A stretch of 63,987 nt of DNA, filler included, from an uncultured bacterium (GTDB lineage Bacteria; DAOPZR01), in assembly GCA_964637655.1 (NCBI GenBank). It is 13 parts of 13 records of this genome, joined end to end, with 100 filler letters (N's around TTAATTAATTAA, not from the genome) between each part and the next. Parts side by side here need not be neighbours in the genome. Positions count along the whole stretch, not along the records: positions 10,540 to 15,663 come from CAZWUZ010000273.1; 12 more parts are not named here. One strand, 5' to 3'. Under the pieces are notes generated by a model. That model did no database searches. It worked only from the letters and a program-made list of their open reading frames with translations, and was not told the origin of the DNA. The position numbers and the translations under genes are program-made. This document shows positions 10,372-61,049 of this stretch, piece by piece. The number at the start of each line of letters is the position of its first letter. Within the stretch, counting starts at the first letter, position 1.

Positions 10372-10412
10372 CCCACCCTCACCCTGCCCTCTCCCGCCCC
10401 GGCGGGAGAGGG
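10372..10412. repeat. REP-like palindrome
   Basis: CCCACCCTCACCCTGCCCTCTCCCGCC..GGCGGGAGAGGG; near-identical inverted copy at 61009-61049. Confidence 0.8.
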
Positions 10413-10545
10413 GAAAACGGATTAACGACTTCATGGGCGNNNNNNNNNNNNNNNNNNNNNNNNNNNNNNNNNNNNNNNNNNNNTTAATTAATTAANNNNN
10501 NNNNNNNNNNNNNNNNNNNNNNNNNNNNNNNNNNNNNNNGTGTTT

Positions 10546-10584
10546 GCCTTCCCCCTCTGCGAGGGGGAAGGTTGGATGAGGGTG
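10546..10584. repeat. REP-like palindrome
   Basis: CCTTCCCCCTC-tgc-GAGGGGGAAGG-TTGGATGAGGGTG; near-identical inverted copy at 60966-61003. Confidence 0.8.
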
Positions 10585-10599
10585 AATAGTTGCGATTGT

Positions 10600-10628
10600 T
10601 TGACAATAACGGGCAACCTCGCTATCAT
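10600..10628 (+). promoter_or_regulatory. Putative sigma70 promoter of the NHLP-sortase operon
   Basis: TTGACA-17 bp-TATCAT, 56 nt upstream of the ATG; GGAGG RBS. Confidence 0.65.
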
Positions 10629-10684
10629 GCAGAGGCGGTGGTGGACTGGAAGGCAGTAAGTTCACCCTGGCGCGGAGGTTGCCC

Positions 10685-11062
10685 ATGGCAACATGGACTG
10701 ATCAGGAATGTGAAGAGGCAATCAGTCGGCTGGTAGAGCGGGCAACCAAGGATGGGGAATTCCGTCAGTTGGCGCTCGCGCAATCGCATGAAGCACTGCG
10801 CGTCGTCACCGGCAGGGACGTGCCGTCCGACCTGCAAGTGACGGTTGTGGAAATGGGAGATTCCCGTAAATCGCCGTCGGGCATAACGGTGTTGCTGCCG
10901 CCGTTCAACGCGGCAGGTCTTTCCCAAGCCGAACTCGCTCACGTTGCCGCCGGTCATGCGGGTGGGATCTATGCCACACCCGACCCGCTGTTCATGGTCT
11001 TGGGGCTGGCCAGCCTCGCCTGCGCGGCGCTGTTCCGGGTCGTTGCCATGCTGCTGCACTGA
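10685..11062 (+). CDS. NHLP (nitrile hydratase-like leader peptide) family precursor with hydrophobic C-terminal segment
   Basis: LVERATKDGEFRQLAL...VTGRDVPSDLQVTVVE...VLLPP...LSQAELAHVAAG matches the NHLP leader and double-glycine-type cleavage motif. Confidence 0.8.
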   Translation: MATWTDQECEEAISRLVERATKDGEFRQLALAQSHEALRVVTGRDVPSDLQVTVVEMGDSRKSPSGITVLLPPFNAAGLSQAELAHVAAGHAGGIYATPDPLFMVLGLASLACAALFRVVAMLLH

Positions 11063-11131
11063 CAATGCCTTGTCGCAGACGAGCATGAACCTGTTGCCCT
11101 GGTTGCCTCCATTGCCTATCCGGCCGGTTGC

Positions 11132-11719
11132 GTGAAGAGCATCTGCCTGCAGCTTCTGTTCTGCCTGCAGCTTATTTTTTTTATTCTCGCGCTGGTGTTC
11201 ATTCGCCGTCCGCTCTGGCACCGGCTCAAACTATGGTGTTACCGCCTGACCGCGGCAAACACCTGGGCGGCAGTCAAAGCCGGCCCGCCGGCGGAAATAC
11301 GGTCCGGGAAGCCGGTTGCCTGGCTGAGGGTTCCCGGCACCGGCATCAGTCATCTGGTGGTTCACGACGCCACAGACGATAATATCATTCTGCATCCGGC
11401 CGTGACGGCGCAATTTTCCCCGCTCAGCGGACCCGGCCTCAGGCAAATATGTGCGCACCGTGACATCCATTTCCGCGGATTGCGGAAACTGCGGCCCGGG
11501 GCCGAGGTGCTGGTCGAACACCCGGACTCCCGCCTGGACTGCTACCGGGTCACCCATATCGACATCATCAACCGGAGCACGCTCAATACGCTCATGACGA
11601 TGCATCGCGATGAGGACTGGCTCGTTCTCGCCACCTGCTACCCGTTCTACTACATAGGCCCGGCGCCGCAGAGGTTCCTCGTCTGGTGCCGGCCGGCGGC
11701 GGTGAGCGGACGTGCCTGA
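11132..11719 (+). CDS. Sortase (class D/GN-like)
   Basis: N-terminal membrane anchor; catalytic triad in AHRDIHF, LATCYPF and PQRF. Confidence 0.88.
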   Translation: MKSICLQLLFCLQLIFFILALVFIRRPLWHRLKLWCYRLTAANTWAAVKAGPPAEIRSGKPVAWLRVPGTGISHLVVHDATDDNIILHPAVTAQFSPLSGPGLRQICAHRDIHFRGLRKLRPGAEVLVEHPDSRLDCYRVTHIDIINRSTLNTLMTMHRDEDWLVLATCYPFYYIGPAPQRFLVWCRPAAVSGRA

Positions 11720-13799
11720 CCGCGCCCGCGGCTGTAGCGACCAGCAGCACGATTACCGGCAGGTCATGCGTGAACTGGCTGAAGAGCACCGGGAGGCGAT
11801 AATCGCCGGCGCACAGGCGACCGGCGCGCTGGGTATTCCACCGGCGCTGCTCGCCGCGGTCATCTGTCTCGAACTGCTGCGCCATTCACGTCGCCTGCGC
11901 CGGCTTGAACTGGCGGTGGAGCGCCGGCGTCTTGCCGGCGGCGCAACCGGCGGCCTGGCTACCGCCGGCTACCGCCTGCTGGCCATGTACCGGCGGGTGC
12001 CGTTTTTCGAACCATCGCTCGGCGTTGGTCAGCTCAAACTGAGCACAGCGGCCATGCTGCTCGGACACCTTGACTGGCGCGAGCCGGCACCCGAGTGCTG
12101 GCGCGAACACCGCCGCGCGGCCTGGCAGGCCTATGAGGCGCTGGCGGCATCAACCAGGCGCGATATTGTCGCGATACTCGGCGAACCGCGGCGAAATATT
12201 GCCCTGGCCGCGCAATTGCTCGCGCGCCTTAAGAACCGGCAGCACCGTTTTCCCGGTCTCCGCGCCATGGCGCTGGCAAGCGATGAGCGGGCGGTAAAAA
12301 TCCTCGTCACGGAATACAATGCCGGGCCGCTCGCCTGTGCGTGCGACAAGGTTGTCTGCTCATTCATCAGTAACACGGCCTGGCGGCTGATGACCGACCG
12401 GGTCATCAGCTGGTCTTTCGGTTCCGGCCATGGGAGCCAACCGACTGCCGGACTGCCGGACGATTGGCTTCCCGGCGGCATGATTACCCGCCCGCAACTC
12501 GATTTTGTGCTGCAACATCTGCGACAGGTGCTTGCCACCGGCGTGCCCGGGGACGTGGTCGAAATGGGTTGCCACGCCGGAACCACGACGGCACTACTCC
12601 GCCGCCAGCTTGATAACTGCGCCCCGGAACGTGCATTGCATGCTTACGATTCTTTCGCCGGACTACCGGCACCGCACGCTGAGGACGCGGCCGGTCCGGG
12701 CCAACCGGTGGTACGCGAAGGAAACTGTCGTGCCACCCCGGAACAATGGCGCGAAACCATCCGTGCCGCCGGGGTGCGCGAACCTGAACTCCACATTGGG
12801 GATTTCGGCGCGCTGCCCGAATCCGCCTATCCCGCAACGGTCGCGTTCGCCTTCTTTGACGGCGACTTGCACCGTTCGCTGCTTGACAGTTTCCGCCGCA
12901 TCTATCCGCGGCTTGCGCCCGGCGGCATCATCTGTGTCCATGACTACGACTGGGGTCCACTACCCGGCGTCCGGCGCGCCTGCGAGGATTTTCTCGCCGA
13001 CAAACCGGAAACGGTGACGGAGGTTTTTGCCACCGTGGCGGTGATCAGGAAACTGCGTCCGGCGACCGCGTACCGGATTTTCACCCCGGACGGTTTTTGT
13101 GACCTGGTGAACCGGATTGACCTGCCGCACACCCGCCGCCCCGACGTTTTACCGCCGATTACGGGATATCCCGCCGCGGACGAGCACCTGCGGCGGCTCG
13201 CCGCGGCACGCGGCTATGTGCCGCGCCCGCTCGCTGTCACGGGTGAGCTTGTCACCAACGGCCATCAGCGCCTGCAGCGCGAAGCAATGGTATCGTGGTA
13301 CCGGTTGCATGCCGCCGCCGGGCATGCGGGCATCCGGCTTGGCCTGCTGTCCGCCTACCGTTCGCCGGCGCAGCAGCAGGCAATATTTGCGCATGTACTG
13401 CGGCGACGGCTGGGAAATGATGCCGCCGGAGCGTTGCCGGCCGAACGCATTGCCGCGGGCGAACTTGACGGGGTGCTGGCGCAGGTGTTCGCCACCTGTG
13501 CACCGCCGGGTTATTCCTTGCACCACACTGGATACGCCTGCGACTTTATTGATATGAGCGGCGGGGAATCGGCAATGGCATTCGCCGGAACGCCCAGTTG
13601 TGCCTGGCTGGCGCAGGACAATCATCTGGCGGCCAGGCGGTTCGGTTTTATTCCCAGTTATCCCGAAGGAACGCAACAGGGCCCTGACCCCGAAGCGTGG
13701 GAATACCTGTGGGTCGGCGAGGATCTGTTGTTGACCGGCACAACCGTCTGCGGGAAATGCCGTCGTTGCGCCAGCGCATGTCGGCTGACCATGCGATAA
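11712..13799 (+). CDS. Tri-domain protein: lysozyme/SLT-like + TylF/MycF-type O-methyltransferase + VanY/M15B D,D-carboxypeptidase
   Basis: LLAAVICLE...SLGVGQLK...EYNAG; VPGDVVEMG...YDSFAGLP...FFDGDL...GGIICVHDY; SAYRS...APPGYSLHHTGYACD...EAWEY. Confidence 0.75.
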   Translation: MPDRARGCSDQQHDYRQVMRELAEEHREAIIAGAQATGALGIPPALLAAVICLELLRHSRRLRRLELAVERRRLAGGATGGLATAGYRLLAMYRRVPFFEPSLGVGQLKLSTAAMLLGHLDWREPAPECWREHRRAAWQAYEALAASTRRDIVAILGEPRRNIALAAQLLARLKNRQHRFPGLRAMALASDERAVKILVTEYNAGPLACACDKVVCSFISNTAWRLMTDRVISWSFGSGHGSQPTAGLPDDWLPGGMITRPQLDFVLQHLRQVLATGVPGDVVEMGCHAGTTTALLRRQLDNCAPERALHAYDSFAGLPAPHAEDAAGPGQPVVREGNCRATPEQWRETIRAAGVREPELHIGDFGALPESAYPATVAFAFFDGDLHRSLLDSFRRIYPRLAPGGIICVHDYDWGPLPGVRRACEDFLADKPETVTEVFATVAVIRKLRPATAYRIFTPDGFCDLVNRIDLPHTRRPDVLPPITGYPAADEHLRRLAAARGYVPRPLAVTGELVTNGHQRLQREAMVSWYRLHAAAGHAGIRLGLLSAYRSPAQQQAIFAHVLRRRLGNDAAGALPAERIAAGELDGVLAQVFATCAPPGYSLHHTGYACDFIDMSGGESAMAFAGTPSCAWLAQDNHLAARRFGFIPSYPEGTQQGPDPEAWEYLWVGEDLLLTGTTVCGKCRRCASACRLTMR

Positions 13800-14136: not shown

Positions 14137-14652
14137 CTACCAGCTGACCGTCACCGCCTGACTGGCACTCACTGTCTGCCCGTCAATCACCGCGCTCACG
14201 GTCACCGTGCCGCTACCGGTCGCCCCGCGTTCCTGGCAGCCGCCCCATGCTACCGTGCCGTCGGCACCCGTCGCGGCGGTGGCGCTGCCCGACGGGCCGC
14301 CCTGCGACTCGCCGCCGAGATAACAGTGCCCGACCAGTGACAGTTGCAGTGTCACCGGCACGCCGGCCGCAGGCGCACCGTCGGCACCGGTGACGGTGGC
14401 GCTGACAGTGTAGTTGTTCATCATCGTCCATGAACTGTTGCACGAAAGCGTGATGGTGCCGGTGCCCGGGGCGCCGTAGAGCAGCGCACTGAGCGCCGCC
14501 CGCCCGTTGTCAGCCTGCTGCTCACCCGCCGCGTTGCTGAACATAGCGCGCAGATTGTCACCCAGCAGCAGGAACACGGCCACCACCACCAGGGCGACCA
14601 GCCCGATGATCAGACCGTACTCGACCATGCCCTGTCCGCGTGCGTACCGCAT
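14137..14652 (-). CDS. Flp/type IVb pilin fused to a Big_1-like Ig domain
   Basis: RGQGMVEYGLIIGLVALVVV Flp motif; C-terminal VSATVTGADGAPAAGVPVTL...ATGADGTV...GTVTVSA. Alternative GTG start at 14658. Confidence 0.8.
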   Translation of the reverse strand: MRYARGQGMVEYGLIIGLVALVVVAVFLLLGDNLRAMFSNAAGEQQADNGRAALSALLYGAPGTGTITLSCNSSWTMMNNYTVSATVTGADGAPAAGVPVTLQLSLVGHCYLGGESQGGPSGSATAATGADGTVAWGGCQERGATGSGTVTVSAVIDGQTVSASQAVTVSW

Positions 14653-14719
14653 GTTCACGCTCCGCCGTTCCGTCTCCTTCCCATCCTACCACACTGCACG
14701 GTGAATGCAAGGTACGTTT

Positions 14720-15020
14720 TCATACAGCCGTCAGCAGGGCCCGCAGCCGGCCGGTATTCCCCGTCAGCGAAAACTGCTGCCGCACCGTTTCCCGTCCGCC
14801 GGCGGGCTGGCGTGCCGCCAGCCCGTCTTCCTCCGCCAGCCGGCACAACGCCCGGGCCAGCGCGGGCGCGGCGTTTTCGGGCACCAGCAGGCCGTTTTCC
14901 CCGTCGCCCACCGCCTCGCGGATGCTGCGCACGTCGCTCACCACCAGCCGCCCGACCGCCACGACCGTGTTCCCCGGCGTGCGCGTGAACCCGTCCGGTT
15001 CCTCGATGAGTCCATGGGAC
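14720..15020 (-). pseudogene. C-terminal fragment of a GT4 glycosyltransferase
   Basis: VVSDVRSIREAVGDGENGLLVP...ALARAL...QQFS; the N-terminal domain is missing. Confidence 0.65.
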
Positions 15021-15094
15021 ATTCCATCCCGCCGCCGCGCCCTTTTCCTGCTGCTGACCACCAGCATACAGGGCGCGCGCGGCAGGGGTGAGGT

Positions 15095-15535
15095 GGGGCG
15101 CAAGGGTCGCGAAGATATGCCAGGCGCGCTTTTCATTGGCCTCGGCAAGTGTGCTGCGACCGATGCGTCCGCGGATTCCCCGATGATAAAGTTTATCGGG
15201 TTGCGCACTCAGGCACGATTCGATGTCCCGTAAACTCTCGCGAAAAGTAAGCTGCGCAAAAGCCATGCACAGAAATTGAGCAAGGCAGGAGAAATTTCTG
15301 ACGCGATAGTCGCCGCGGTACTGGCGAACGATATCCTGGAAATGACGCTACGGGAGAAAATCCATCACCTGGGCGAAAACAGTACCTCCGGTATTCATCA
15401 GTCGCTCCTCGTCCGAAAGACGACCAAAGTGTACACCGGACCGGATTGCAAATCGAAACACGACCATTATCGTAAGAGCAGACGGTTTTGTATGAGGATA
15501 CGCCGATAGTGGAATTGCTCAACCGGACAGCAGCA
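15095..15535 (-). mobile_element. Truncated IS4-family element (DUF4372 transposase N-terminus with in-frame stop, plus left end)
   Basis: From ATG 15398: MNTGGTVFAQVMDFLP*RHFQ...FLCMAFAQLTFRESLRDIE...RSTLAEANEKR, with TAG at 15348-15350. Terminal-IR-like CTGCTGTCCGGTT at 15521-15533. Confidence 0.85.
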
Positions 15536-15880
15536 AGTCAATATGAAGCGGAAACTGCCAATGGTCAAACAACCCCATTGTGGTATACTGAAAGCGTTCG
15601 GTTGGAATCCTGTCTTTAGGAGCACTTAGCCACTAGGTAAAAACCGGCTCGCCCCGACGAGGGNNNNNNNNNNNNNNNNNNNNNNNNNNNNNNNNNNNNN
15701 NNNNNNNTTAATTAATTAANNNNNNNNNNNNNNNNNNNNNNNNNNNNNNNNNNNNNNNNNNNNAACCTGCGGGTGAAACCTGGCGTTGGCAATTATACCC
15801 AGATGCGGAATCGCTGGGGCTGCGTACAACATCTTGACCTCTCTCAATGCGGCAGGTATACTGCCGCGTCGGGAGGGAGC

Positions 15881-57749: not shown

Positions 57750-58642
57750 GCCAACACTCCCGTCGCGGAGACCAGCGCCGCCACCAGCAGCACGAGCATG
57801 GCCAGCGTTACAAAAGCAATTGCGGTAAACCGCCAGCCGAAGACGCGCTGGTACATTACTGCCAGCTTGATGTCCGCCACCGGGCCGAACCAGAGGAAGG
57901 CGAGTTGTGCCAGCGGCGGCACGCCGACGAGCGCATAGGCGACAAACGCATCCGCCTCCGAGCAGACCGAGAGGATAAAGGCGAGCAGCATCGCCGCCGG
58001 CACCCCGAGCAGCGGCCAGTCAACCGACAGGTCGGCAAGTTTACCCACCGGGAGTGTCAGCGTGACGGTCGCGGCCACGGCGGCGCCAAGCGTCAGGTAG
58101 GCAAAGATGCGCGACGCGTCAGTGACGAAGGTGGCGCCGAAGCGCACCAGCCGCGACTGGTGTTCCTCTTCCGTCACGCAGTGGCAGCCGTGCCCGTGGG
58201 CACAGAGCGCGCGCGGCTCGGGGAGGGCGCGGCGCAGCAGGAAGGCCGCCGCCAGCGCGACGATGAACGAGCCGCCGCCGCGCAGCAGCATCATGCTCGT
58301 ACTGTCGTTGAACGCGACATAGGTCGAATAGAGGACGATGGGCTGCACTGCGGGGGCGGCGTAGAGATAGGCGAGCAGCGGGCCGGTCGCCATCCCCTTG
58401 GCGCGCAGCCGCGCGACGACCGGGATGATCCCGCACTCGCAGACGGGGAAGACGAAGCCGGCGAGCGCGGCGGCGGCGATATTGAGCGCCGTGCCGCGCC
58501 CCGACAGGCGCTGCAGCAGCGTCGCGGGGACGAAAACCTCGAGCAGCGCCGAGACCAGCGCCCCGAGCACGATGTACGGGAAGGCCTCGAGCAGCGTCCC
58601 CGTGACGAGGGCGCCGAGCGTGGCGATGGTACTCAACGTCAT
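57746..58642 (-). CDS. DUF318 (YcgR-like) permease
   Basis: LLEAFPY, FPVCECGIIPV, His/Cys-rich loop, SVCSEADAF, GPVADIK. Confidence 0.88.
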   Translation of the reverse strand: MTLSTIATLGALVTGTLLEAFPYIVLGALVSALLEVFVPATLLQRLSGRGTALNIAAAALAGFVFPVCECGIIPVVARLRAKGMATGPLLAYLYAAPAVQPIVLYSTYVAFNDSTSMMLLRGGGSFIVALAAAFLLRRALPEPRALCAHGHGCHCVTEEEHQSRLVRFGATFVTDASRIFAYLTLGAAVAATVTLTLPVGKLADLSVDWPLLGVPAAMLLAFILSVCSEADAFVAYALVGVPPLAQLAFLWFGPVADIKLAVMYQRVFGWRFTAIAFVTLAMLVLLVAALVSATGVLA

Positions 58643-58663
58643 GCGCTGTCGCTCCGTTCCATC

Positions 58664-59371
58664 TCAGGGGAGACCCGAAGCAGCGCGGTGCAGCAGGCGG
58701 ATTTCCTCCGCGCGCAGCACCCGCCGGTAAAAGCGCAGTTCGTCGATGGCACCGTCATAGCGGAAACCGAGCCAGTGTCCGACCTGCAGGTCGGCGCCGC
58801 TGCCTACAGCCAGCCCGGTGCCCGGCACGCGCAGCGACAGTTCGCCGTTGACATACTCGCTGAAGGTCACCCCGTCATACACCACCACGAGATGATTCCA
58901 TTCGTCAGCCCGGAACTGCTCGCGGCGATTCCAGCCGGAATCATCGCGCAAACTTCCCTGCCGCCCGTCAGCCCAGGCCTCGGCATAGTGCGTGCCGATA
59001 TTCCAGCCGGAAGCGTTCGTCCCGCCGCGCCACCAGGCGGCCGCGGCCAGTTTGTAATTGTTCGCCGGCTGCGCGGTCTTGAACCAGAGCGAGATGGAGT
59101 ACTGTTCCGCCCCGGCCAGCGGGTTGCCTTCACCCTGCAAATACGTGCCGGCAAAGCGTGCGGCCGTGCCGTACACCCCGTCCGTGGCAATCACCGACCC
59201 GACCGGGGTCAGGTCAAAGCCGTTGCCCGAACGGTCGCGCACGCTGGCGGTGTCGGTGGCAAGCGCATTGAAATCGTAGTAGGCCGTCAGACCGGTGGAC
59301 ACACCGGGGAGCACCTCAGCCGCGGCCGGCGCGACAGCAACAAGCAGTACCATCATCAGTATCGCTGGCAT
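58664..59371 (-). CDS. Secreted LamG/concanavalin-like domain protein
   Basis: Signal peptide, AYYDFN, YSISLWFK, WNHLVVVYDG, YVNG, GAIDELRFY. Confidence 0.85.
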   Translation of the reverse strand: MPAILMMVLLVAVAPAAAEVLPGVSTGLTAYYDFNALATDTASVRDRSGNGFDLTPVGSVIATDGVYGTAARFAGTYLQGEGNPLAGAEQYSISLWFKTAQPANNYKLAAAAWWRGGTNASGWNIGTHYAEAWADGRQGSLRDDSGWNRREQFRADEWNHLVVVYDGVTFSEYVNGELSLRVPGTGLAVGSGADLQVGHWLGFRYDGAIDELRFYRRVLRAEEIRLLHRAASGLP

Positions 59372-59471
59372 CTTCCCCTCCCGTGTCGCAGTATACTTCA
59401 CCCGCGTGTTGTACACCACCTGCCGCATCCGGTGAGCAGGCATGGTGGTATAATTACCCGGAAAGCGCTCC

Positions 59472-59508
59472 TTGACCGCTATTATAGCATTTGCTATTAT
59501 CATGTCAA
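59472..59508. promoter_or_regulatory. Overlapping divergent sigma70 promoters with a central palindrome
   Basis: Plus strand TTGACC-17-TATTAT; minus strand TTGACA-16-TATAAT; ATAGCA-TT-TGCTAT in the centre. Confidence 0.65.
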
Positions 59509-59530
59509 GTGCATGCTCAGGAGGACTCCC

Positions 59531-60895
59531 ATGAAACAGTACGACCTGCTCATCCTCGGGGCGGGTGCCGCCAACCCGCTTGCCCTGGCCGCCGCGGCGC
59601 AGGGGCTGCGCACCGCGCTGGTCGATCCCGGGCCCGCGGGCGGGACCTGCCTCAACCGCGGCTGCATCCCGACCAAGGTGATGCTGCACAGCGGCGAGGT
59701 GGCGCGGGCGGCGCGTGACGGCGCGCGCTTCGGCATCAACAGCCGGGTCGACAGCATCGATTACGGGGTCATCCGCAACCACGTCAACGGCATCGTCTCC
59801 TTCTGGCGCGACCGCCTGGAAAAGCGTCTGGCCACGACAAAGAACCTCGATTTCTACCGTGCGCCCGCACGTTTCACCGGTGACAAGACGGTGGACGTGG
59901 CCGGGCAGCGACTGCGCGGCAATCGTGTGGTTGTCGCGGTCGGGACGCGCCTGCTGCTGCCGCCCATCCCCGGGCTTGACACGGTCCCGTATTACACCAA
60001 CGAGAACATTCTCACGCTCCCCGCGGTCCCCGCCACGCTGGCCATGATCGGGGGCGGCTATATCGGCATGGAGTTCGCCTGCTTCTTCGCGGCTTTGGGA
60101 AGCGCGGTAACCGTCATCGAGCCGCAACCCTATCTGCTCAACGCCGTCGAGCCGTCGCTGCGCGAGGAGTTCAACAAACAGGTGGCGCAACAAATGCGCG
60201 TGCTGACCGGCACCACGGTCGAACGTCTCACTGCCGACGGCGCGCAGAAGCTGCTCACCTGCCGGCATGCCAATGGCACGGAGTTGACAGTCAGCGCCGA
60301 CGCGGTCTTCCTCGCGGCCGGACGCGTCCCCAGCACCGACACGCTCGACTGCGCCGCGGGCGGCCTCACCCTCGATGCGCGCGGCTACATTGTCACCAAT
60401 GAATTTCTCGAATCGAAGCGGGAGCAGGTCTGGGCGCTGGGCGACTGCGCGGGGACGCCGGCGTTCCGCCATATCGCCGATTACCAGGAGGAACTGCTCG
60501 AGGGGAATCTGTTGCACGGGCGGCGCGTTGCCGCCGACTATACGCTTGTCCCCTACGCGGTCTTCACCCATCCCGAACTGGCGTCGGTCGGCCTCTCCCG
60601 CGCACAGGCGGTGGCGCAGGGGCATGACGTGGTCGTGCGCTCGCTCAACTATTCAGGGAATGCGCGCGGGCGGGCGATGGGTGTCCCGGGCTTCTGCACC
60701 GCGGTCATCGACCGCAAGACGGAGCGACTGCTCGGCTTCCATGTCATCGGACCGCACGCCTCGATTCTCATCCACGAGGTGTTGCCGGTGATGACGAAGA
60801 AACTGCCGGTAAGCGTCCTCACCGAAACCATCCATATCCACCCGGCGCTGTCGGAACTGGTGCCGTGGACCTTCACCCTCGGCAAAGAGTTGTAG
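59531..60895 (+). CDS. Pyridine nucleotide-disulfide oxidoreductase (dihydrolipoamide dehydrogenase/mycothione reductase family)
   Basis: GGTCLNRGCIPTK, IGGGYIGME, AAGR, GD, HIHPALSE. Confidence 0.92.
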   Translation: MKQYDLLILGAGAANPLALAAAAQGLRTALVDPGPAGGTCLNRGCIPTKVMLHSGEVARAARDGARFGINSRVDSIDYGVIRNHVNGIVSFWRDRLEKRLATTKNLDFYRAPARFTGDKTVDVAGQRLRGNRVVVAVGTRLLLPPIPGLDTVPYYTNENILTLPAVPATLAMIGGGYIGMEFACFFAALGSAVTVIEPQPYLLNAVEPSLREEFNKQVAQQMRVLTGTTVERLTADGAQKLLTCRHANGTELTVSADAVFLAAGRVPSTDTLDCAAGGLTLDARGYIVTNEFLESKREQVWALGDCAGTPAFRHIADYQEELLEGNLLHGRRVAADYTLVPYAVFTHPELASVGLSRAQAVAQGHDVVVRSLNYSGNARGRAMGVPGFCTAVIDRKTERLLGFHVIGPHASILIHEVLPVMTKKLPVSVLTETIHIHPALSELVPWTFTLGKEL

Positions 60896-60965
60896 CGGCG
60901 CCAGCACTCGCGTATTCTGCCACCGGGGAATTCAGCCGTTATTGCTCCTGTTCGCACAGCCATAC

Positions 60966-61049
60966 ACCCTCATCCAACCTTCCCCCTCCGAGAGGGGGAA
61001 GGCACTCACCCTCTCCCGCTGCGGCGGGAGAGGGCAGGGTGAGGGTGGG
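60966..61049. repeat. Pair of REP-like palindromes between convergent genes
   Basis: CCTTCCCCCTC..GAGGGGGAAGG and CCCTCTCCCGC..GCGGGAGAGGG. Confidence 0.8.

Follow-up and report, generated by a model that had tools for sequence, protein, structure and literature searches.

A candidate Gram-negative sortase cassette with an NHLP-like domain as its cargo in an uncultured bacterium

Introduction

Gram-negative sortases are barely characterised. The class GN ('marine') sortase (TIGR03784) has been described as a dedicated Gram-negative enzyme that is encoded beside its target (PMC3237569), and the proteins that adjoin it are of the VIT/vWA type (TIGR03788; PMC3237569, PMC13712847). The module of Shewanella oneidensis (pdsO-SO2195-SO2196) provided the first physiological link for such an enzyme, reported in 2026: a sensor of peptidoglycan damage induces it, it helps the cells tolerate cell-wall-acting antibiotics, and its anchoring site is stated to be unknown (PMC13712847). 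This cassette is the closest known system to the locus described here, which occupies one contig (10540-15663) of a 63,987-base stretch of DNA from an uncultured bacterium (GCA_964637655.1), hereafter the window. On this contig, a gene for a 125-aa protein with an NHLP-like domain (gene 1) stands directly upstream of a sortase gene (gene 2), which is followed by a gene with methyltransferase and carboxypeptidase-like domains (gene 3). We give an even chance to the reading that genes 1 and 2 together make up a dedicated GN-type sortase-target cassette, in which the NHLP-like domain takes the place of the usual VIT/vWA cargo.

The locus resembles the GN cassette in that a small, N-terminally anchored sortase follows immediately downstream of a single protein whose C-terminal end comprises a motif and a helix plus a basic residue, in that the tail of gene 1 is in register with those of GN targets, and in that gene 2 groups with VIT-adjacent sortases. 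It differs in cargo, as the VIT plus vWA part of GN targets comprises ~700 aa and the NHLP-like domain only 90 residues. In addition, gene 1 lacks a signal peptide and the LPQT part of the motif and has a weak basic tail, gene 2 scores under half the TIGR03784 cut-off, and no gene for a pdsO-like OmpA protein, as found in Shewanella oneidensis, was seen on the contig.

Three further groups of systems share single traits with the locus. The rhombosortase/GlyGly-CTERM and exosortase/PEP-CTERM systems likewise attach a tripartite C-terminal signal, as a portable suffix, to unrelated cargo and likewise place an enzyme and a single target side by side (PMC3237569), but their enzyme families are unrelated to sortase and their targets bear signal peptides. 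Class D sortases include the best solved sequence relative of gene 2, Bacillus anthracis SrtD (2ln7, E 8.6e-10), matched via HRD and TCYPF..APxR, and have a T-A-T type signal in common with the group of gene 2, judging from the NCBIfam name 'LPxTATN-specific' and from Firmicute loci. However, they work in Gram-positive hosts on cell-wall-anchored targets with signal peptides, whereas the organism of the window appears to be diderm, from LpxK and heptosyltransferase genes on other contigs of the same window. Finally, the proteusin/NHLP precursors (TIGR03793; 9cjx, 8tb1) of peptides made on ribosomes and modified after translation (RiPPs) are homologous to gene 1 across the 77-position profile, but they carry a Cys/Ser/Thr-rich core after the leader, a place that in gene 1 is taken by a membrane helix bearing a sortase-type signal. 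An NHLP-sortase pairing is unreported, in agreement with the first-pass annotation of the window: in the literature searched, supplements aside, no natural NHLP-sortase or sortase-RiPP pairing was found, and the two occur together in the engineered use of sortase A. The pairing is known so far from this one locus.

Gene order and target slot

The window consists of 13 contigs, sorted by length from 5,203 to 2,254 bp and joined by spacers of the form N44-TTAATTAATTAA-N44 (e.g. 10440-10539 and 15664-15763), and contigs that are adjacent in it are not necessarily neighbours in the genome. The third of them, a metagenome contig of 5,124 bp, carries the locus, with three intact, co-oriented open reading frames (ORFs) on the + strand that encode 125, 195 and 695 aa (Table 1). 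Gene 2 starts 69 nt after the end of gene 1. The order of the genes is real and not an assembly chimera, because contigs from other public runs, belonging to two studies, span the junctions with 0-2 differences to the window (the window itself may derive from one of these studies). One such contig (X1 record 4) covers 10567-11130, the precursor-sortase junction is spanned by X2 record 9 (10860-11342), and the junction between sortase and gene 3 by X5 record 27 (11538-11793) and X1 record 7 (11651-12751).

For comparison, 160 related sortase loci were obtained from scans of genome and metagenome contigs, not de-duplicated between the collections. In 124 of them the sortase gene begins where a VIT-type protein ends, 15 have less than 300 bp of upstream sequence, and the remaining 21 show no VIT homologue. 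In the window, gene 1 stands in this target slot, and tblastn with five VIT-type targets found no VIT homologue there. Non-VIT proteins with sorting-type tails adjoin related sortases at two pairs of loci (L025/L139 and L028/L033), so that cargo replacement has precedents among the related loci. In the first pair (L025 and L139, 6365-7111, +), the protein of 249 aa ends in LPATAS, a helix and RRWY and is encoded directly downstream of the GN-related sortase, with the consequence that both cargo and gene order differ from the canonical cassette.

The C-terminal tail of gene 1

The C-termini of the proteins whose genes lie upstream of the related sortases carry a signal such as LPQTATP..., GQGATD... 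or xATA[ST]..., with a helix and then basic residues behind it. A tail profile was built from the proteins encoded directly upstream of these sortases: 119 of the 160 passed the filter and yielded 100 unique tails. When it was run against the 759 stop-to-stop ORFs of the window, residues 97-121 of gene 1 gave the best match (E 6.6e-5, 18.1 bits), far ahead of the runner-up (E 0.64), and the tail aligned in register with the consensus AT-P..L....GL. The real tail scored 20.9 bits, a value that all 2000 shuffled versions failed to reach (the best at 11.8), and gene 1 was still the best window match (E 0.0046) after the 11 tails of its nearest clade had been left out of the profile. The helix itself is hydrophobic (KD12 2.42) and contains one Arg (R116), with seven further residues beyond it and a terminal His. 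It is on profile rank, register and the shuffle test that the last ~29 residues of gene 1 are assigned as a putative GN-type sorting signal, on a protein in the target slot. The proposal of the first-pass annotation that the sortase acts on an NHLP-type protein is thereby supported, both by this tail and by the slot that VIT/vWA proteins fill in most related loci.

The NHLP-like domain of gene 1

The N-terminal part of gene 1 is matched by TIGR03793 at residues 10-90, over profile positions 3-77 of 77 (E 1.3e-9). The family had been named in the first-pass annotation, and the search bears this out as far as a full-profile match goes, but the 37.8 bits obtained fall short of the curated cut-off of 50.9 bits. 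A phmmer search over 1.84 billion representatives returned 125 proteins at E<=1e-3, gene 1 itself included, and all 61 of the relatives that were aligned and scanned are matched by TIGR03793. An AlphaFold2 (AF2) model based on the alignment of these 61 relatives has a mean pLDDT of 84, with residues 1-60 at 90-97. In a Foldseek comparison of this model with the PDB, the best match was the proteusin precursor DprE2 (9cjx; E 0.011, probability 1.0, TM 0.58 on the target), which provides the structural match to an NHLP protein that had been proposed as a check; ranks 2-15 are nitrile hydratase (alpha) or thiocyanate hydrolase chains, and no match reaches E 0.001. By homology, residues 1-90 are assigned as a genuine member of the NHLP clan.

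The near-invariant GG columns of the NHLP family align to A89-G90 of gene 1, and a further GG is found at residues 93-94. The domain ends in ...AELAHVAAG followed by HAGG, in the region of the alignment in which its relatives read VAGG, after which come IYATPDP and the hydrophobic helix with its one Arg. The N-terminal domain is acidic, with 13 Asp/Glu versus 8 Lys/Arg. A word-index protein search with the precursor returned the self match only. P0009 (131 aa), encoded on a contig of 938 bp, is 39% identical to gene 1 over its full length, helix included, and is the sole other protein with the whole architecture; judging from this homologue, the combination of domain and tail is conserved.

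The usual neighbours of the two families are as the first-pass annotation gave them, with VIT/vWA proteins beside GN sortases and a radical SAM (S-adenosylmethionine) enzyme beside a canonical NHLP gene. The latter was the only match in an NHLP search of five genomes that bear related sortases; it lies in L162, adjoins a radical SAM gene and has no sorting tail. In contrast, no YcaO, radical SAM, LanM or C39 transporter gene was found near gene 1 on the 5.1-kb contig, or among the 70 larger ORFs of the window, in which the sole radical SAM match carries a molybdenum-cofactor synthesis domain. The statement that neither partner set is on the contig is thus true but weak as evidence, because the contig has just 5,124 bp and the window consists of joined short contigs.

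The sortase

Gene 2 has the hallmarks of a membrane-anchored sortase. It is matched by PF04203 with 58.2 bits, as the first-pass annotation would have it, and its best sortase model in NCBIfam is class GN (TIGR03784, 70.4 bits), followed by the class D models with 58-60 bits. An alignment (A1) with the four relatives that a word-index protein search returned shows no variation at H109, C169 and R181, and the catalytic residues also align to those of the class D enzyme 2ln7. A hydrophobic segment (KD19 2.78) is located at the N-terminus. In a quick maximum-likelihood tree of 138 unique rows out of 155, from which 10 loci had been dropped for incomplete matches, gene 2 falls into a clade of 18 rows (SH-aLRT 97) together with 11 VIT-adjacent sortases, with P0003 as its nearest neighbour. 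Judged by its sequence, gene 2 looks functional and like a member of the Gram-negative sortase lineage. No relative of it was found on viral contigs.

Among the closest relatives by tblastn is a sortase from an Aminicenantes metagenome-assembled genome (L001/L082, 5926-6522; 37% identity, with 42% for L084/L085). It has no tail-bearing target within 6 kb, and the genes upstream of it look like hydrolases.

Proposed sorting route

The domain identities, the in-register tail match, the target-then-sortase order and the catalytic residues are observed features of the locus, and from these a route can be proposed for the cassette. The 125-aa protein would be anchored in the inner membrane via its C-terminal helix, and the IYATPDP linker would be offered to the membrane-anchored sortase with its Cys169, His109 and Arg181. 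Cleavage would take place at or beside Tyr96/Ala97, a position that aligns to T|A of the canonical LPQT-AT. The NHLP-like domain would then be transferred to an envelope nucleophile or to water, while the helix would remain in the membrane. Three elements of this route are inferred: passage of the N-terminal domain across the membrane in the absence of a signal peptide, the point of cleavage and the identity of the acceptor. The linker between the confident NHLP domain and the helix is predicted to be flexible, as AF2 confidence is low at residues 90-100 (pLDDT 53 for residues 91-100), and the terminal helix is predicted at residues 101-124. Prediction of a complex between the sortase (residues 40-195, alignment A1) and the precursor (residues 76-125) scored 0.00 in a run without controls and counts neither way.

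Several findings weigh against the cassette. Gene 1 reads GGIY where targets have LPQT, GQG or xxAT, so that half of the motif, its upstream part, is missing, and the basic tail is weak, with a single Arg versus the RR or RRR typical of targets. The homologue P0009 has S-V at the A-T positions, and its tail reaches just E 0.14 in the tail profile. Moreover, gene 1 has no signal peptide: KD12 peaks at 1.24 within residues 1-95, compared with at least 2.2 for the N-terminal hydrophobic 12-mer of 74 of 82 complete VIT-type targets, and no start codon lies upstream of the gene 1 ATG in the open frame. LPXTG and PEP-CTERM proteins are said always to bear a signal peptide (Haft 2011, PMC3237569). 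On the side of the enzyme, the TIGR03784 score remains below the curated cut-off of 158.25 bits, and gene 2 sits on a long branch (1.51) in the quick tree. The pair does not recur either, although the first-pass annotation had looked to its recurrence in other genomes: a search with our own NHLP profile over 18,287 ORFs, those of the window included, detected no NHLP-like ORF in any of the 160 related loci, gene 1 being the sole match, and tblastn of the precursor against the same loci gave 0 matches. Finally, the neighbourhood is unstable, with an insertion sequence (IS) fragment and a glycosyltransferase remnant at the contig end, and may be a rearranged island.

If the cassette is real, the GN sorting signal would be shown to be a portable suffix, and an NHLP domain that crosses the membrane without a signal peptide would break the rule stated for sortase targets. 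A soluble cargo of 96 residues would also be a far easier biochemical substrate than a VIT/vWA protein of ~700 aa, and with so small a cargo mass spectrometry could locate both the cleavage site and the acceptor. All of this rests on one locus and one homologue, P0009.

Alternative explanations

The strongest competitor, in our view unlikely yet deserving of weight, is that there is no working system: the pair would be a rearrangement by-product in an IS-affected, poorly conserved island and would go unprocessed in vivo. Under this explanation an NHLP gene would have fused to the final codons of what was once a sortase target, or would have landed beside an orphan sortase. It is consistent with the single locus and the lack of the pairing in all 160 related loci, with the DUF4372 transposase fragment and glycosyltransferase remnant at 14655-15266, with the GC content of the contig (0.631 versus 0.59-0.70 in the other window contigs), with the degenerate motif and absent signal peptide, and with a Glu in the VanY part of gene 3 where solved relatives have His. 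However, none of the three ORFs is disrupted, a strong Shine-Dalgarno sequence precedes gene 1, the DNA of the locus was recovered in runs of two studies with 0-2 differences, and the sortase has retained its catalytic residues. A recent accident would also leave unexplained why P0009 retains the NHLP domain plus helix at 39% identity.

A second explanation, which we hold to be quite improbable, places the locus in a RiPP-like pathway. The NHLP leader would recruit tailoring enzymes, and the sortase, in place of the C39 protease, would cut a few residues past the double-glycine region and ligate or release the product, which would be either a 29-residue membrane peptide or a leader-linked stub, tailored by gene 3 through its methyltransferase and carboxypeptidase-like domains. 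In favour of this speak the genuine NHLP-clan membership of the domain, its end in ...AELAHVAAG and then HAGG in the region of the relatives' VAGG columns, the predicted sortase site 2-6 residues past the glycines, and the one promoter-like site ahead of the three genes. Gene 3 has no signal peptide and shows a basic run after its hydrophobic stretch, which fits a cytoplasmic enzyme. Against it, no YcaO, radical SAM or LanM maturase and no C39 transporter is encoded on the contig or in the larger window ORFs, the sortase catalytic domain is periplasmic by homology to sortases of VIT targets and thus apart from a cytoplasmic leader, a natural sortase-RiPP pairing is missing from the literature searched, and gene 3 recurs with neither partner. 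Very unlikely, too, is the specific version in which the sortase was recruited into RiPP maturation as a transpeptidase: the leader would dock the precursor, the sortase would replace the C39 protease and cleave past the double-glycine region, and either an envelope amine would receive the leader-borne stub or the 29-residue membrane peptide would be released in tailored form, with the fused methyltransferase/carboxypeptidase-like enzyme tailoring the product or the acceptor. If the RiPP explanation held, a transpeptidase would join the RiPP toolbox, and recruitment of this kind would amount to a new RiPP or protein-sorting logic that is independent of the signal peptide.

Least probable of all is that gene 1 encodes a tail-anchored cytoplasmic NHLP-like protein with the helix as a mere anchor and the sortase target elsewhere in the genome, as can occur, given that a VIT target next to the sortase is lacking in 21 of the 160 related loci; the missing signal peptide, the C-terminus without a basic cluster and the lack of the AT dipeptide in P0009 agree with it, but the tail scores far above its shuffles and all other membrane helices of the window, gene 1 occupies the place of the target, immediately upstream of the sortase gene, and no other ORF of the window (~60 kb of the genome) has such a tail.

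Gene 3

The first-pass annotation described gene 3 as a tri-domain enzyme, of which two domains stand. The TylF-type methyltransferase part matches PF05711 with 73.9 bits (cut-off 23) and the VanY/LdcB-type peptidase part matches PF02557 with 69.9 bits (cut-off 25), both above the Pfam cut-offs and as annotated. The first ~250 residues, on the other hand, gave only noise in Pfam at E<=10 and no sequence match in the PDB at E<=10. Atlas leads for this part were SLT and Tse3 clusters at 0.86-0.87, with SLT at rank 19 and 0.87, below the lead level of 0.9, and the single-sequence AF2 model (pLDDT 34.8) is unusable. The resemblance to SLT is a weak one, seen by eye.

LdcB/VanY carboxypeptidases and TylF O-methyltransferases are both known families, and in the window the two domains are fused within a protein of 677-695 aa that also has the N-terminal third. 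A word-index search with gene 3 returned, apart from itself, one TylF-only protein (P0008, 431 aa), and in the size range of 382-1217 aa no other protein was found to combine TylF with VanY. On a viral contig (L161, 4749-5588, +), a methyltransferase ORF that lacks VanY is 47% identical to the TylF part. The VanY part aligns to the LdcB chains 4mph, 4jid and 4ox3, including the SxYRS..Q and SxHxxGxAxD stretches. The EPWH of these solved chains, the His of which we take to be a zinc ligand, reads EAWE in the VanY part of gene 3 (window 13206-13796), and the H..D stretch is kept; from the sequence, EAWE may represent a change at the metal site of VanY.

No signal peptide is apparent in gene 3, and its sole hydrophobic stretch is followed by a basic run. 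It is probably co-transcribed with genes 1 and 2. The overlap between the last two genes that had been annotated holds, at 8 nt, if GTG 11712 is the start of gene 3; the protein-database gene call (677 aa) starts at ATG 11766 instead and leaves a gap of 46 nt after gene 2. A part of gene 3 in the sortase system appears doubtful, as it is linked to the sortase by position only. Its suggested role in remodelling or methylating the envelope acceptor finds no backing in the comparison, since tblastn of gene 3 against the 160 sortase loci gave 0 matches and its database relatives cover the TylF part only. The tolerance of cell-wall-acting antibiotics in Shewanella oneidensis could, by analogy, serve as a thematic hint for a tie (PMC13712847).

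Features of the contig and the rest of the window

The coordinates of the features are collected in Table 1.

Table 1. Features of the locus (positions in the window)
Feature	Position	Strand	Basis or remark
REP-like GC-rich hairpin repeat	10540-10593	.	at first bases of contig
Sigma-70-like promoter pattern, TTGACA-17-TATCAT	10600-10628	+	11 of 12 positions match; pattern match only
Shine-Dalgarno sequence, GGAGG	10674-10678	+	6 nt 5' of ATG 10685; read from sequence
Gene 1, 125-aa precursor/target protein (NHLP-like domain, short linker, sorting-signal-like tail)	10685-11062	+	
NHLP-clan domain, residues 1-90	10685-10954	+	TIGR03793, relatives, fold model
C-terminal tail with linker, residues 95-125 (motif IYATPDP, hydrophobic helix, single Arg)	10967-11059	+	
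Gene 2, membrane-anchored sortase, 195 aa, divergent class GN relative	11132-11719	+	PF04203, TIGR03784, catalytic residues, tree
Gene 3, 695-aa form	11712-13799	+	
Gene 3, N-terminal ~250 residues	11712-12476	+	start GTG 11712 or ATG 11766; no family assigned
Gene 3, TylF-type SAM methyltransferase domain, residues 256-431 of 695-aa form	12477-13004	+	PF05711 E 1.6e-20; PF13578 E 4.9e-9
Gene 3, VanY/LdcB-type peptidase domain, residues 519-669	13266-13718	+	PF02557 E 2.4e-19

The three genes do lie co-oriented behind one sigma-70-like promoter pattern, as had been annotated; the contig has four promoter-like sites in all, versus a mean of 1.0 in shuffled sequence. PADLOC gave no match, and neither did Rfam on the contig. 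Convergent to gene 3, a Flp/Fap pilin-like protein of 173 aa (14137-14658, -) matches PF04964 with 31.3 bits, just below the cut-off of 32.2, and has a long Thr/Gly/Ala-rich C-terminal extension. At 14655-15266 (-), an N-terminal fragment of a DUF4372 transposase overlaps, in another frame, the C-terminal remnant of a group 1 glycosyltransferase, and the right end of the contig looks IS-disrupted. Elsewhere in the window, a 996-aa ORF (57905-60892, +) consists of a pyridine nucleotide-disulphide oxidoreductase in its C-terminal half and of ~540 N-terminal residues without a Pfam match, and some contigs contain extra N runs of 100, 100 and 10 bases. A comparison of RecA with five genomes, meant to place the organism, gave 55-58% identity in four of them, values too uniform to discriminate, and a weak partial match in the fifth.

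The repeat at the start of the contig, which resembles repetitive extragenic palindromic (REP) elements, recurs in the window, as the first-pass annotation had noted. The hairpin at 10546-10571 has its second copy at 60977-61003 (previously placed at 60966) with 2-3 mismatches and a chance expectation of 0, and the similarity extends over ~50 nt on the minus strand of 60955-61020. A further GC-rich hairpin repeat lies near a contig end at 10385-10425. Several otherwise unrelated contigs in runs X1-X5 match 10540-10593 alone and then diverge, which suggests that the REP-like element is multi-copy and breaks assemblies.

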